DNA from: a virus
Lineage: Duplodnaviria; Caudoviricetes
DNA length: 64,000 bases
Strand: one strand, 5' to 3'
Virus record (IMG/VR): IMGVR_UViG_3300021167_000128
Coordinates: 1 to 64,000 of that record
Below, piece by piece: positions 11,699 to 16,386 of the stretch (position 1 is its first letter; each line of letters opens with the position of its first letter). The notes under the pieces are model-generated. The model ran no database searches. It was not told the DNA's origin and was given only the letters and a program-made list of their open reading frames with translations. A program made the translations under genes and the position numbers.

Positions 11699-12061
11699 AT
11701 GCTTAAGAAACCCAAAAGTAAACGCTTCGTAATCACTTGCACAGCTTATGATAAATCTGGTAGAGTAATTGCAATTGAAAATAATTCATACACAGACAGT
11801 TGTAGGCTTATGCGATTCTTTGCCAAAGCTGTAGGTGATAGAACTAAGAATGACCAAAGGAAAGTTTATAATCATGCAGAAATAAAATGTATTGACAGAG
11901 CAATTAAGCTTGGTAAGATTGTTCATATGCTTAAAGTAGAGCGGATAGAGAATGGTCTATACCAAAATGCTAAACCATGTTATATTTGTATGCATGCAAT
12001 AAAGCACTTCAAAATTGCTAAAGTTATATATAGCACAACTGAAGGTTTTAAAACACTTTAA
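11699..12061 (+). CDS. Cytidine/dCMP deaminase-fold protein
   Basis: Zn-binding HAE...PCxxC (HAEIKC, PCYIC). Confidence 0.75.
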   Translation: MLKKPKSKRFVITCTAYDKSGRVIAIENNSYTDSCRLMRFFAKAVGDRTKNDQRKVYNHAEIKCIDRAIKLGKIVHMLKVERIENGLYQNAKPCYICMHAIKHFKIAKVIYSTTEGFKTL

Positions 12062-12076
12062 AGTAAAGGTATGTAA

Positions 12077-12994
12077 ATGCTTATTATTGGATCTTTTGCT
12101 ATTATTGAGAATCTTCCTAATGAACGTATCCCTAAAGATATTGATCTTATTTGTAGTCGAGAAGAATTTTTAGATATTGTTAAATATACTAGGTTGAATC
12201 TTGAAGTTGAAAAACTTCAGATTAAAGATTCTGGTGCAATGCTTAAAGCAAAAAATTATATCCCACTTGAAGTAACATTCCTAGGTGAAGGACAATTTGC
12301 TGAAAGCAATAAACTACTAATCTCTTTGTGTAAAGAGACTAAATCTAAGGCTATTCCATACAGTTGTAATATGATTTCTTGTATCAGCTACGATATATAT
12401 GCTCTTATGAAGGAAACTCATAAATATAGGAAGAATAGTCCTCATTTCTTGAAAACAATGAATGATCTGCTGTTCTATCATACTCAATTTAATATTGAAT
12501 ATTTTAAATATAAATATAAAGACTTTTATGATCTTAGGTGCAAAGAGACTTACAATTATTCTCACCCTAATCTAAATCAGATTAAAGATACATTCTTTAC
12601 TGATTCTGTAGGTTATATCTATGATCATGACTGTATCCATGAAGCTGTTAAACATCTTGACAAGCCTTCATATAAATACTACATTGAAGACTCTTGTGAA
12701 GTTAAGTGCAGTAAAGAAAAGTTTGACAAACTTCCAGAAATTGTTAAACTGTATGGAGTTCTTGAAGAGGCATATGTGTTAGCACTAGAGCGTGCTATCA
12801 TTCCAAATAAAACTGAAGTTAATAAAGCATTTGATATTGCACTTGAAAAAGTTTGTACAAGTATTACTTCAGGTTGGTTTAGGGAGTATGCTTACAATAA
12901 TTACTTTAAAGTAAAAGAGTTATATCATGATAGTTTTGTTGATAAGTTTAATTCCGCTTTGATGGAAGGTGAGATTAAACTTTTTAAGGGGTAA
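12077..12994 (+). CDS. Putative Pol-beta-type nucleotidyltransferase
   Basis: N-terminal IIGSFA...DIDL (GS/DxD) motif. Confidence 0.55.
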   Translation: MLIIGSFAIIENLPNERIPKDIDLICSREEFLDIVKYTRLNLEVEKLQIKDSGAMLKAKNYIPLEVTFLGEGQFAESNKLLISLCKETKSKAIPYSCNMISCISYDIYALMKETHKYRKNSPHFLKTMNDLLFYHTQFNIEYFKYKYKDFYDLRCKETYNYSHPNLNQIKDTFFTDSVGYIYDHDCIHEAVKHLDKPSYKYYIEDSCEVKCSKEKFDKLPEIVKLYGVLEEAYVLALERAIIPNKTEVNKAFDIALEKVCTSITSGWFREYAYNNYFKVKELYHDSFVDKFNSALMEGEIKLFKG

Positions 12995-13035
12995 CTAAAT
13001 GAAATACTACCCACTTCAAATAGATGAAATTTTGG

Positions 13036-13064
13036 TTGACACTTACGTAAATTAAGTATAAACT
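13036..13064 (+). promoter_or_regulatory. Sigma70-like promoter of the tRNA pair
   Basis: TTGACA-17-TAAACT. Confidence 0.7.
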
Positions 13065-13077
13065 TTAGTTTAAATAT

Positions 13078-13154
13078 CTGCCGTTAGCTCAATAGGATAG
13101 AGCAAGGGTTTTCTAGTCCCTAGGTTGTGAGTTCAAGTCTTACACGGCAGGCCA
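13078..13154 (+). tRNA. tRNA-Arg(TCT)
   Basis: Cloverleaf: CTGCCGT/ACGGCAG acceptor, loop TTTCTAG, T-loop TTCAAGT, encoded CCA. Confidence 0.9.
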
Positions 13155-13159
13155 AACAC

Positions 13160-13250
13160 AGAAGCATAGTTTAACGGTAAAACAGCGGACTTATACCCCG
13201 TAGCCATAGATAATGGGCTGATCTCGGTTCAACTCCGGGTGCTTCTACCA
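13160..13250 (+). tRNA. tRNA with anticodon TAT (nominally Ile) and a long variable arm, 91 nt
   Basis: AGAAGCA/TGCTTCT acceptor, loop CTTATAC, 21-nt variable region, CTCGG-TTCAACT-CCGGG T-arm, A73, CCA. Confidence 0.85.
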
Positions 13251-13279
13251 AATAGTATCAGTATCAATATCAAAAGTAA

Positions 13280-13308
13280 TTGACAGTATCTTTTAATGTT
13301 GGTATTAT
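13280..13308 (+). promoter_or_regulatory. Sigma70-like promoter upstream of the VWA gene
   Basis: TTGACA-17-TATTAT. Confidence 0.7.
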
Positions 13309-13424
13309 GCGTATGTCGGGCGGACTCACGAGAAACATTATATACTACTACTACTACTACTAGTAGTATTAGTCGAAAGGGTCTAATACCAACACAACCT
13401 TATAATTAATTGAAAGGAAATTAA

Positions 13425-14726
13425 ATGAAAAACTATATCTGTTTTGTAAACGATCATTCTGGTTCTATGTATGATGTAGTTAATGCAGCTATCAATGACT
13501 ATAATTCCATTATTGAATCTGTAAAGAATGCTGCAACGCGAGAGATGCAAGATACTATTGTTAATACTGTAGGTTTTGGATTTAACCATCCTTCTATTAC
13601 ACGTCAAGTAATTAATTCAAATCCTCACGTTCTAAATCCAGTAATTAGTTGGCCTGCTATGGGACAGACTCCTCTTTATGATGCAATTGGAGATGCTATT
13701 GATCTACTTAAATCTGTTCCTGACTATGACAATTCTAATGTATCTTTCCTTGTGAGTATTACTACTGATGGTGGTGAAAATAACTCTACTAAATATGATA
13801 TGATTAGTATTCGTTTCCTTATTGAACAGCTTCAAGCTTCTGGCCGTTGGACTTTTGTAATTCGAGTACCTACTGGTAACAAAAAGATTGTAGCTAACAT
13901 TGGTATTCCTATAGGTAATATTCAAGAATGGGAAACTACGAATAAAGGTCTTGAAGCTTCTACTGTCAAAACACAATCAGCAGTAGATAAGTTCTTTACT
14001 ATGCGTTCTTCTGGAAGTCGTTCTTCTACTACGTTTTATGCAGATGCAAGCGATGTTGATACTTCTAATCTTGTAGATATTACTTCTGAGATTTCTCTAT
14101 ATGTTGTTCCTGTAGATAAGATGGGGATTGAAATTCGAGATTTTATTCTTGAACACAGAATGGAATACCTAAAGGGTGCTGCATTCTATCAACTGACTAA
14201 AACTGAATCTCGTGTTCAACCTACTAAGCTGATTCTAGTTCGTGATCGAGGTACAGGTAAGATCTATGCTGGTAAGGATGCTCGTAGCATGATTGGTCTT
14301 CCTTCTGATAAGAATGCACGTTTGCATCCTGGTGATCATAAGAACTTTGATATTTTTATTCAGAGTTCTTCTGTAAATCGTAAGCTAGTCGGTGGAACTG
14401 GTGTTGTATATTGGAGTAAGATTGGTGTTCCTTTTACGGATAAGGATCTTGAATATCTAAAGCCGAAAGCTAAAACTGCTGTAGAACTTCCGAAGGTTGA
14501 ACCTACTAACAAGCCTACTAAGAGCCCTATTCCAATAAGTAACAAGGTTCTTAATCCTTCAGTCAATAGTAAGTTTGTTGTATTCTTCACTACTCGTAAA
14601 GAAGCGCGAGAATACAACCAAAGGTATAATCGATCTGGTGTGAAGGATCTATTTATGCTGACTACACAAGAGCTTGCAACTGTTGTTGGTAACACTAGCA
14701 ATAATCGCTGGTTTGTATTTGTTTAA
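13425..14726 (+). CDS. von Willebrand A (MIDAS) domain protein with extra C-terminal domain
   Basis: FVNDHSGSM (DxSxS), GQTPLYDAI, ITTDGGEN. Confidence 0.8.
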   Translation: MKNYICFVNDHSGSMYDVVNAAINDYNSIIESVKNAATREMQDTIVNTVGFGFNHPSITRQVINSNPHVLNPVISWPAMGQTPLYDAIGDAIDLLKSVPDYDNSNVSFLVSITTDGGENNSTKYDMISIRFLIEQLQASGRWTFVIRVPTGNKKIVANIGIPIGNIQEWETTNKGLEASTVKTQSAVDKFFTMRSSGSRSSTTFYADASDVDTSNLVDITSEISLYVVPVDKMGIEIRDFILEHRMEYLKGAAFYQLTKTESRVQPTKLILVRDRGTGKIYAGKDARSMIGLPSDKNARLHPGDHKNFDIFIQSSSVNRKLVGGTGVVYWSKIGVPFTDKDLEYLKPKAKTAVELPKVEPTNKPTKSPIPISNKVLNPSVNSKFVVFFTTRKEAREYNQRYNRSGVKDLFMLTTQELATVVGNTSNNRWFVFV

Positions 14727-14736
14727 TAATTAAAGC

Positions 14737-14764
14737 TTGACTCCAGGCTGAACTGCTGTATAAT
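14737..14764 (+). promoter_or_regulatory. Sigma70-like promoter of tRNA-Leu and the ncRNA array
   Basis: TTGACT-16-TATAAT, overlapped by the inverted repeat GGCTGAACTG/CAGTTCAGCT. Confidence 0.65.
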
Positions 14765-14786
14765 AACTACTTCAGTTCAGCTTATA

Positions 14787-14871
14787 GCCTCTGTGGTGGA
14801 ATTGGTATTCACAAGGGACTTAAAATCCCTCACCGTTAGGTATGTCGGTTCGAGTCCGACCAGAGGTACCA
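14787..14871 (+). tRNA. tRNA-Leu(TAA)
   Basis: GCCTCTG/CAGAGGT acceptor, loop CTTAAAA, variable arm, TTCGAGT, ACCA. Confidence 0.92.
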
Positions 14872-15612
14872 ACAAGTAGAAGAGTTATTTATAGGGCGTC
14901 ATAATATTAGAAAGAAACGAGTGCCGGAGCTTGGATCTGGAGATAGTTATGGCTTTGAGTGGCGACGGTCACTTATAGGGTGGTGGTTCGATCCCCCCCT
15001 CACGCCCTGCAAATAGCTTTTCTACTTGTTGGTGAATGCGCAGGCTGATGCGCCTGTGTGGGATCACACTTGGCTAGTCCATGCCGGAGATCAGCACCGG
15101 CCACCAACAAAGCAGTTCCTCCGTGCTACGGGTTAGGGGTTCCTAGCCGACAAACGGAGGGCCAACATTGAAGCCCTGTGCGCAATAGCGCGCCTCTGGT
15201 ATCCCGGTAGCTGCCGTGAAGCGTGGAAGAGACTTTACTGTCCGTAGCGGGATGGTCAGCCGGTGCCGAGCGCGAAGGTGTCTAAATCCGGTTCGCGTAA
15301 CACAGGGCTTCAATGTTGGTGAATGTGTAGGCTGATACATGCTGTTGAAGTACTAACGTGAAGGCTAAATAAACCACACTATCGGTAAAGCCGGAAGAAG
15401 TCAGTGCCGGCCACCAACAATCTCTCCGGTGGATTGCAGCGGATGGAAGACTGGAAGAAGTCGGGCGTGTCAGTGATGCCGCCCTGTGAGGGACAAAACC
15501 CCGTTCCGGTGGAAGGCCGGGCCAACATTGAAGTACCTTGAGCTGAAAGAAATAGCGGTCAAAGTAAGATGTCGAGCGAAGCTGTGGTCACCCGGAAAAG
15601 TAGCGGGTCAAC
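14872..15612 (+). ncRNA. Array of unidentified structured non-coding RNA modules
   Basis: GC-rich, no credible ORF, two 19-bp stems, two homologous modules with compensatory changes, repeated CCAACA junctions. Confidence 0.75.
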
Positions 15613-15729
15613 AATATTTAATAATCTCACAAATAGTTAAGAATTAACTGCAGTAAAGTCCTACTTAGACTGTAAATAAGTAATCGTAACACATCGTAAT
15701 TATCGTTACTATAACAAAGGAGTAAATAC

Positions 15730-16386
15730 ATGGAAGAAAATAACGTAAATCCTTATGAAAAAATTGAAGGTATGCTGCAATATGTTTGTATCCGGGATGC
15801 AGTCAAAGCTTATCAAAAGCCTGGAACTGACCCTAAGCCGGATGAATGGAAGGTCAGTATTGTTCTTACGGATGAGGATTATGTAGATGCTCTTGAAGAA
15901 TGGGCAACTAAGATTGATTGTAAGCTGTCGCTAAAGAAAGTTAAATCTGCTTCGTTTGAAGAAACTTACAAGACCGCACCTCCAGAAAATGCAGGTAAGA
16001 ATGTGTGGGTCTGGACTCTGCGTAAGAGCGTAGAACTTGGTAAGACAGGTAAGCCCGTTCCTGACAAGTTTAAGCCTAAAGTTTATCAGCGTAAAGGTGC
16101 TACTCTGGTAGATATTACCAATACTGCTCTTGTGGGTAATGGATCTACGGGTGTTGTTAGTACTGATCTATTTGTTCGTAACAACGGTTCTGTTAGTATT
16201 TATCTCAAGAATGTTCTTGTTACGAATCTAATTGAGTGGATTAAAACTGATGCTAGTGATTCTTATGTAGAAGGTTCTGAGTTTGAAGATGTAGTTCAAC
16301 CTCAAGTAGAAGTTAATAAAAACTCTACTAAAACTAAGGTTAAGCAAGAAGATCCTGAAGAAGATCTAGAAGATAGCCCGTTTTAA
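15730..16386 (+). CDS. Single-stranded DNA-binding protein (T7 gp2.5-like)
   Basis: Acidic tail ending in an aromatic residue (EEDLEDSPF); VGNGS motif; replication context. Confidence 0.7.
   Translation: MEENNVNPYEKIEGMLQYVCIRDAVKAYQKPGTDPKPDEWKVSIVLTDEDYVDALEEWATKIDCKLSLKKVKSASFEETYKTAPPENAGKNVWVWTLRKSVELGKTGKPVPDKFKPKVYQRKGATLVDITNTALVGNGSTGVVSTDLFVRNNGSVSIYLKNVLVTNLIEWIKTDASDSYVEGSEFEDVVQPQVEVNKNSTKTKVKQEDPEEDLEDSPF

Follow-up and report, generated by a model that had tools for sequence, protein, structure and literature searches.

Among the sense codons, AUA stands alone in being read by nearly all bacteria through a special modified base, lysidine, and to our knowledge the few exceptions to this arrangement have changed either the synthetase or the ribosome. 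The lysidine-type tRNA-Ile2 encodes CAT, for TilS, within an Ile-like body that carries A73. The isoleucyl-tRNA synthetase (IleRS) of Escherichia coli charges tRNA-Ile2 bearing UAU approximately 360-fold less well than the same tRNA bearing lysidine, and W905R, a single change in that enzyme, relieves the disfavour (PMC3575796). In Mycoplasma mobile, where a tRNA-Ile2(UAU) reads AUA as isoleucine free of lysidine, the solution to UAU lies in the enzyme and the ribosome, the IleRS carrying Arg865 and the ribosome being adapted (Taniguchi et al. 2013, PMC3575796), and a UAU suppressor of Bacillus subtilis likewise reads AUA as isoleucine without lysidine (PMC3919564). Both are class I tRNAs with four arms, and tRNAs of this type share the problems of poor recognition by a Trp905-type IleRS and of a risk of misreading AUG; in the M. 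mobile arrangement, the class I tRNA is accompanied by an IleRS adapted to U34, with Arg or Lys at the position of E. coli W905.

Anticodon-arm mimics that are read by synthetases outside of tRNAs have also been described, as in the E. coli thrS operator; hairpins of this type show a cognate triplet to the synthetase away from the decoding anticodon, reside in mRNAs and regulate translation. Two further groups of tRNAs combine a UAU anticodon with a long extra arm. The acidobacterial allo-tRNA(UAU) displays a five-stem junction, with 8/4 or 9/3 acceptor and T stems and a long, Sec-like D stem closed by a tetraloop (Mukai et al. 2017, PMC5389517); six species of it were inactive as amber suppressors in E. 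coli and were treated as potential serine acceptors, and the main text of that report makes no mention of a GAU loop or of Ile identity (PMC5389517). The nematode nev-tRNA-Ile(UAU) is a nuclear tRNA with a Leu-type class II body, and is charged with leucine in vitro (Hamashima et al., PMC3333845; PMC4300185).

The stretch of DNA that was analysed here (the window, 64,000 nucleotides in length) is taken from a virus record of 80,636 bp, IMGVR_UViG_3300021167_000128, which possesses direct terminal repeats and a G+C content of 36%. On its forward strand, which also holds the promoter at 13036-13064, the tRNA-Arg gene and the genes at 11699-12061 and 12077-12994 that are described below, ARAGORN places a 91-nt tRNA-Ile(tat) at positions 13160-13250 with its anticodon at 13192-13194, and the Rfam tRNA model RF00005 scores the same interval at 55.3 bits (gathering score 29; E = 1e-10). 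The gene is built as an elongator tRNA is expected to be: its acceptor and T stems are of the 7/5 type, it has U8, A14, G18G19, a TTCRA T-loop, A73 (13247) and an encoded CCA (13248-13250), and the seven nucleotides of its anticodon loop include U33 and a purine at position 37. Its acceptor strands (AGAAGCA/TGCTTCT, with A1-U72 and A4-U69) are followed by U8 and A9 and then by a D arm of four base pairs and a seven-nucleotide loop (GTTT-AACGGTA-AAAC), to which the single nucleotide A26 joins the decoding anticodon arm, here termed arm X (13185-13201; GCGGA-CUUAUAC-CCCGU, UAU at 13192-13194). Arm X contains C32, U33, A37, C38, a G29-C41 pair and an A31.C39 mismatch (13189/13197). Beyond it lies an extra region of 21 nucleotides (13202-13222), the greater part of which is occupied by a second anticodon-like hairpin, here termed arm Y (13202-13219), in which a stem, AGCCA/UGG(G)CU, closes a 7-nt loop, UAGAUAA (13207-13213), with GAU at 13209-13211. 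A linker that itself reads GAU (13220-13222) leads from arm Y to the T arm (13223-13239; CUCGG-UUCAACU-CCGGG), and its final U could pair with A15 as the 15-48 pair. The initial annotation of this gene, made from the letters alone, had described an intact cloverleaf with anticodon TAT, a 21-nt extra region containing a stem, A73 and CCA, and ARAGORN, Rfam and the sequence bear out each of these; it had missed the feature that concerns us most, which is that the loop TAGATAA shows GAU at loop positions 3-5. RNAfold, applied to the lone sequence, did not return a cloverleaf (z = -0.63), an outcome that is usual for single tRNA sequences and that was not used.

A tRNA-Arg(UCU) gene (13078-13154; 56.6 bits) ends five nucleotides upstream of the tRNA(UAU) gene, and the two are probably co-transcribed. 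A sigma-70-like promoter (13036-13064; TTGACA, 17 nt, TAAACT) stands upstream of the pair and matches 10 of 12 consensus positions, at a score for which sites are no commoner in this region than in its shuffles. ARAGORN finds seven tRNA genes in the 80.6-kb genome, all of which encode CCA; the six besides tRNA(UAU) have anticodons UCU, UAA, UGA, UAG, UGG and UGU and correspond to codons AGA, UUA, UCA, CUA, CCA and ACA, confirming the earlier statement that all six serve codons ending in A. The gene directly upstream of the tRNA pair (12077-12994) contains domains DUF7277 and DUF7275 (2.7e-60). Some 1.1 kb upstream of the pair, 11699-12061 encodes a 120-residue protein of the cytidine/dCMP deaminase fold (PF00383, with a weaker match to MafB19-deaminase) that probably serves nucleotide metabolism; no link was found between it and the C39/U39 polymorphism of the tRNA that is described below. 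Downstream, the interval 13280-13420 contains a near-consensus promoter (TTGACA, 17 nt, TATTAT, with TG; 11/12), followed by a leader of approximately 110 nucleotides that has no open reading frames and contains a (TAC)n/(TAG) repeat, ahead of a gene of 433 residues at 13425; contigs from public sequencing runs break at 13334-13377.

Each of the described systems resembles this tRNA in part. It shares with the lysidine-type tRNA-Ile2 an Ile-like body and A73, and would share the decoding of AUA, but encodes TAT in place of CAT and carries the extra arm; given its UAU anticodon, it should have no need for the TilS of the host. With the M. mobile and B. subtilis tRNAs it shares UAU, but at 91 nt and with an additional GAU hairpin it exceeds the class I length, and the phage brings no IleRS of its own, its genome giving no match to PF00133 (the class I synthetase core) or to PF01171 (the PP-loop domain of TilS). 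The acidobacterial sequences have the same UAU, long extra arm and five-stem junction and display in that arm a CAGATTA loop that is also found in members of the phage family described below, whereas the window tRNA has 7/5 stems and a canonical 4-bp D stem; an 8/4 fold of the allo-tRNA type was considered for it and rejected, as the possible eighth pair (U8.G65) is not conserved across the family. The nematode tRNAs match it in UAU and a long extra arm, and differ from a phage tRNA with a class I, Ile-like body and a GAU arm. The thrS-type mimics resemble arm Y in showing a synthetase its triplet, although the putative mimic lies here within a tRNA and would serve charging. Literature on a second or anticodon-like tRNA arm, on anticodon mimicry by a variable arm and on phage tRNA-Ile with UAU yielded no description of a GAU arm.

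The initial annotation had proposed a survey of homologues, and pattern scans of viral contigs revealed a large family of phage tRNAs with the same design. A first scan used the anticodon arm of the window tRNA as its query, with A31.C39 forced; every tRNA that shared this arm was long-armed, and their remaining arms differ. A second scan specified only CTTATAC and a T-loop, with a spacing open to both short and long tRNAs and with neither GAU nor an extra arm named, and yielded 13 class I tRNA(UAU), ten new long tRNAs of 91-96 nt and three other long forms. Seventeen distinct UAU tRNAs of 91-96 nt from the two scans, the window's own among them, were aligned. Their acceptor, D, T and arm sequences vary, and their Y loops are closed by stems of differing sequence, yet GAU is invariant in the Y loop (17/17), always at positions 3-5 of a 7-nt loop with the consensus Y-W-G-A-U-W-R. 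All five helices are supported by covariation: 95.5% of alignment cells are paired, and both partners have changed in 21 of the 24 pairs, values that none of 500 shuffles reached; sliding one partner by one to three columns as a control lowered the paired cells to 39-50%. For the Y helix itself, 94% of cells are paired and three of its four pairs have changed on both sides. A single nucleotide separates the D stem from arm X in every member (17/17), G1.U72 or A1-U72 is frequent, and positions 31 and 39 are usually paired in the sets that were not forced for that feature, such that C38 and A31.C39 of the window tRNA represent minority states. A family model, R1, gives the window tRNA 84.1 bits, having been built with that sequence included. 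The window tRNA is therefore a member of a widespread two-armed phage tRNA(UAU/GAU) family. The possibility that the Y loop pairs with the T-loop, or with the linker behind arm Y, was considered and rejected, as the complementary letters are not conserved.

Membership in this family is not universal among long-armed UAU tRNAs. Three long UAU tRNA calls are without a GAU loop, namely an 88-nt tRNA whose extra arm ends in a TTCG tetraloop (L066:3174-3261), an 81-nt tRNA with a 9-nt variable region (L115:1618-1698) and a doubtful call of 86 nt (L049:3581-3666). A large subfamily keeps both arms and has its D arm replaced by a non-canonical region (for example GCCAGCG-AGACTTGGTAGTCAGAG-...CTTATAA...CAGATTA...); it is represented at L232, L234, L236, L243, L244, L246, L254 and many other loci, and several of its copies were missed by ARAGORN.

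The association of the GAU hairpin with the UAU anticodon was found from both directions. At loci that had not been selected on their extra arm, GAT occupies positions 3-5 of a 7-nt loop closed by a stem in 17 of 19 long UAU tRNAs, and no such loop occurs in the 59 phage tRNAs for Leu (25), Ser (22) and Tyr (12) encoded at the same loci. A reverse scan of viral contigs, which specified CAGATTA and a T-loop and left the anticodon unspecified, returned 56 long tRNA(tat), approximately six family members that ARAGORN had not called, two tRNA-Leu and chance matches in coding DNA; among the unique cases, the hairpin directly upstream of arm Y presents a TAT anticodon in 44 of 48. In that set, arm X has U33 in 92% of cases and a purine at 37 in 94% (position 38 being A in 58% and C in 33%), and so is fit to decode; arm Y has mostly A at position 33 and often U at position 37, and so is unfit to do so.

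The initial annotation had described the extra region as a class II long variable arm. The arm is indeed long, and the bacterial class II tRNAs (Leu, Ser and Tyr) likewise have five helices, the additional stem-loop lying between the anticodon arm and the T arm, but the class II premise is misleading. A class II variable arm is expected to have a short loop (3-5 nt) and to be separated by 0-2 nt from the anticodon and T stems. In phage tRNAs for Leu, Ser and Tyr the loop of this arm is 3-6 nt long, most often 4, with 0-1 nt between the arm and the anticodon stem and about 1 nt (3 in Tyr) between the arm and the T stem. Arm Y of the family has a conserved GAU loop of 7 nt, with 2-6 nt on its 5' side and, measured from the contiguous Y stem, 5-6 nt on its 3' side; with the outer AG/CU pairs formed, the 3' linker of the window tRNA would measure 3 nt. 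The window tRNA is thus distinct from class II in its arm, and also in its anticodon, UAU, and in a body that is not of a Leu, Ser or Tyr isotype. By this comparison of layouts, arm Y and its linker are arranged as an anticodon arm would be with a class I variable loop behind it, and in the members typified by L002 the arm and linker (GCGC-CTGATAA-GCGC-GAGGT) resemble that portion of tRNA-Ile(GAU).

Several features of the body point to isoleucine. The window tRNA displays the Ile-like marks U12-A23, A73 and U72, and its D arm is identical to that of the tRNA-Ile(GAU) of phage KVP40, which is among the D-arm matches of 20-25 nt that were all that a sensitive blastn search returned. When both arms were removed and the rest compared with 1,698 phage and bacterial tRNA bodies, with the best 150 considered, the nearest were other members of the family, followed by Lys, Met/Ile2, Ile(GAU) and Trp; Leu(UAA) contributed six and Ser(GCU) three of the best 150, and Tyr was absent from the isotypes listed. 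The E. coli tRNA-Ile identity set (Nureki 1994), as summarised in PMC9976931, comprises A73, U12-A23, C4-G69 and C29-G41 and, in the anticodon arm, G34 or L34 with A35 and U36, t6A37 and A38; that review prints U12-G23 where the identity set has U12-A23. From this set the window tRNA retains A73, U12-A23, A35, U36 and A37, and departs by U at position 34 and, as the initial annotation had pointed out for the last three, by C38, A4-U69 and G29-C41 (positions 34, 38 and 29-41 as counted in arm X). The series G34-A35-U36-A37-A38 is present in the loop of arm Y (13209-13213).

The codon to which the tRNA would be assigned is indicated by the company it keeps. The two-armed tRNA occurs, in phages that encode 25-27 tRNAs, beside separate tRNAs for Ile(GAU), Leu, Ser and Tyr, and it therefore fills the AUA slot. 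The window phage itself uses ATA at 223 in-frame codons (10 per 1000, or 14% of its Ile codons), which are evenly distributed along its genome. Taken together with the Ile-like class I body and with the ATA codons facing Ile and Val in relatives (described below), these observations favour two proposals of the initial annotation, a role at AUA and a non-canonical Ile tRNA; the window gene is a real tRNA, and most likely an AUA-reading tRNA-Ile.

The explanation that we prefer for arm Y, with the case for and against it about evenly balanced, is that the tRNA is an elongator that reads AUA as isoleucine, in which the GAU arm supplies the IleRS recognition that is missing from UAU. According to this explanation, the tRNA would read AUA alongside the six phage tRNAs for codons ending in A; arm X (U33, UAU, A37) would act as a normal decoding anticodon arm at which the ribosome reads UAU; and arm Y would constitute a conserved copy of the ordinary tRNA-Ile anticodon display, with GAU, a 7-nt loop and a class I-like linker. 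The gene would accordingly need to be expressed and its product charged with isoleucine, and IleRS would read GAU on arm Y, probably in a conformer in which Y, rather than X, is stacked under the D stem. Arm Y would be needed because a Trp905-type IleRS takes UAU poorly, because the phage has neither an IleRS nor a TilS, and because the enzyme of the host cannot be changed by the phage. For a conserved display of the cognate anticodon that goes with UAU and does not occur in other long tRNAs, the simplest reading is a handle for IleRS. The specific division of labour, in which the synthetase reads GAU on Y and the ribosome reads UAU on X, is nevertheless proposed only tentatively, at somewhat less than even confidence, because Y is imperfect, the geometry is unfavourable, UAU tRNAs without the arm exist, and the handle is something that we infer. 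As a mimic, arm Y is mostly without U33 and often without A37. An extra arm held in the usual class II geometry is directed away from the face of the tRNA that is bound by class I synthetases, such that IleRS could read Y only after a rearrangement that brings it under the D stem. Arm-less class I tRNA(UAU) also occur in phages (the 13 found by scanning viral contigs), and the three long UAU tRNAs without a GAU loop (L066, L049 and L115) provide further counterpoints. The inactivity of six allo-tRNA(UAU) species as amber suppressors, the presence of TilS in acidobacterial genomes with the design and the absence of the tRNA from closer relatives of this phage also count against the explanation. 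For bacterial IleRS, t6A37 is described as a strong determinant (PMC9976931).

Among the alternatives, the one that survives best accepts an isoleucine-charged AUA reader and assigns arm Y to something other than IleRS: a handle for a modification or processing enzyme, a means of fending off MetRS, LeuRS or SerRS or else a host tRNA nuclease, or a structural brace by which decoding is tuned and UAU is kept from misreading AUG. All of the evidence for a functional Ile tRNA applies equally to it, the differences between the Y loop and a true tRNA-Ile loop at positions 33 and 37 would fit a reader that wants only A-G-A-U, and an added control on decoding is plausible given that unmodified UAU misreads AUG on E. 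coli ribosomes (PMC3575796). This reading has no known candidate for the reader, makes it a coincidence that the invariant triplet is the anticodon of the cognate isoacceptor, and must accommodate the tie between arm Y and UAU in the viral contigs; we consider it unlikely, if deserving of attention.

That the RNA is not translational at all, but a decoy or regulator, such as a bait for a host anticodon nuclease, a toxin or IleRS, appears improbable; a decoy was the third proposal of the initial annotation. The idea was suggested for the acidobacterial allo-tRNA(UAU), which were inactive as amber suppressors and are often located beside toxin-antitoxin genes (PMC5389517); those sequences have the same CAGATTA loop as the phage family, and two anticodon-like loops would suit a bait. 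The window tRNA nonetheless has every mark of an elongator, sits in tRNA operons, fills the AUA slot in near-complete phage tRNA sets and keeps, in arm X, both U33 and a purine at 37.

Charging with Leu, Ser or Tyr, by which a class II tRNA would recode AUA or make it ambiguous, is unlikely, and we give it little weight. It would draw on the long extra arm, A73 and the putative A15-U48 pair, features that are also used by the E. coli LeuRS, and it has a precedent in the nev-tRNAs (PMC3333845, PMC4300185). Against it stand a D arm of class I type with A9 and a 4-bp stem, an arm loop and linkers unlike those of phage Leu, Ser and Tyr tRNAs, nearest bodies that belong to other isotypes, A73 in place of the G73 of tRNA-Ser, and the absence of the G34-U35 that TyrRS reads. 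The codons of the phage were also compared with 34 related loci and five whole related genomes. The residues opposite its ATA codons in relatives are Ile and Val, followed by Leu and Thr, whereas true Leu codons in the same comparison face Leu at 44-55% of positions; well-covered ATA sites in the genes for DNA polymerase, primase-helicase and portal face mostly Ile or Val. This alignment speaks against Leu, Ser or Tyr, in a test of low power (23 positions with at least three subjects, in a host whose own tRNA already decodes AUA as isoleucine) with which partial ambiguity is compatible, and to the same extent the mischarged Leu or Tyr tRNA that the initial annotation had envisaged finds no support.

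Finally, the possibility that arm Y is itself the working anticodon arm, reading AUC and AUU, with X an accessory hairpin of about 21 nt inserted after nucleotide 26, has in its favour the L002-type members, whose Y arm and 5-nt linker are like those of native tRNA-Ile(GAU), but can be given very little credence when Y is mostly without U33 and often without a purine at 37 and X keeps both, X is joined to the D stem by one nucleotide in all members, phages with this tRNA also possess a separate tRNA-Ile(GAU), and the tRNA set of this phage targets only codons ending in A.

The distribution of the element was followed among related phages, metagenomes and bacteria. The two-armed tRNA is absent from the relatives compared (34 loci identified by DNA polymerase, and five whole records), megablast of positions 12000-16000 against cultured phages gave no match, and, judged by terminase, the phage has its closest cultured relative in a Limnohabitans phage (47% identity). 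The stretch or close variants of it are present in wastewater metagenomes from several studies; contigs among them carry a C39U variant of the window tRNA that restores A31-U39, and no changes in the triplet of the X or Y loop are reported among the wastewater contigs compared. Contigs from public runs accumulate over the core of the tRNA whether the run is of DNA or is marked 'RNA?', because the sequence is common to related phages. At one related locus (L177:8133-8304, in IMGVR_UViG_3300020045_006660, with a DNA polymerase 70% identical), an 87-nt 'tRNA-Met(cat)' directly follows a tRNA-Arg(UCU); its acceptor and T arms resemble those of the window tRNA, its anticodon CAU lies in a CTCATAA loop, its extra arm is short and closed by a GAAA loop, its D region is odd and lacks U8, and it may be a homologue of the window gene with another anticodon and arm. 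Suppressor-type tRNAs are also encoded by phages that have the two-armed tRNA, with anticodon CTA at L017:3369-3462 and L052:2292-2385 (94 nt each) and at L110:4685-4759 (75 nt), and with TCA at L082:5558-5653 (96 nt), which hints at the reading of stop codons in those phages.

A scan of bacterial genomes with a pattern naming both arms recovered at least 120 loci (L344-L463). Among the matches listed, most are from Acidobacteriota; the canonical 7/5 form is found in Pyrinomonadaceae, often where tRNA genes are densely arrayed, Acidobacteriaceae and Terriglobales have a form in which a Sec-like D arm is combined with a CAGATTA second loop, and many of the 8-kb loci contain 10-34 tRNA genes. 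To judge from its sequence, the second of these forms is probably the 'allo-tRNA(UAU)' described by Mukai et al. 2017. TilS is kept in all five of five acidobacterial genomes that carry the design, so that a simple replacement of TilS in bacteria is rejected, and the design there adds to lysidine rather than taking its place.

If the preferred explanation is correct, and IleRS does recognise the tRNA through arm Y, the family would represent a third solution to AUA, in which the tRNA carries its own synthetase handle and is portable across phage hosts, and phages and some bacteria would decode AUA without lysidine and with the host synthetase unchanged. It would also mean that tRNA identity has, in nature, been moved to a second arm, possibly by means of a switch in which arm is stacked under the D stem; we know of no other natural case in which the triplet read by the synthetase and that read by the ribosome reside on different arms of one tRNA. 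Such an arrangement would bear on the evolution of tRNA identity and could be taken over directly in the design of orthogonal or recoded tRNAs. In annotation, genes of this type appear as unusual class II tRNA-Ile, and tRNA finders overlook some of the subtypes. The acidobacterial allo-tRNA(UAU), which were judged inactive, may deserve a second look as isoleucine acceptors.
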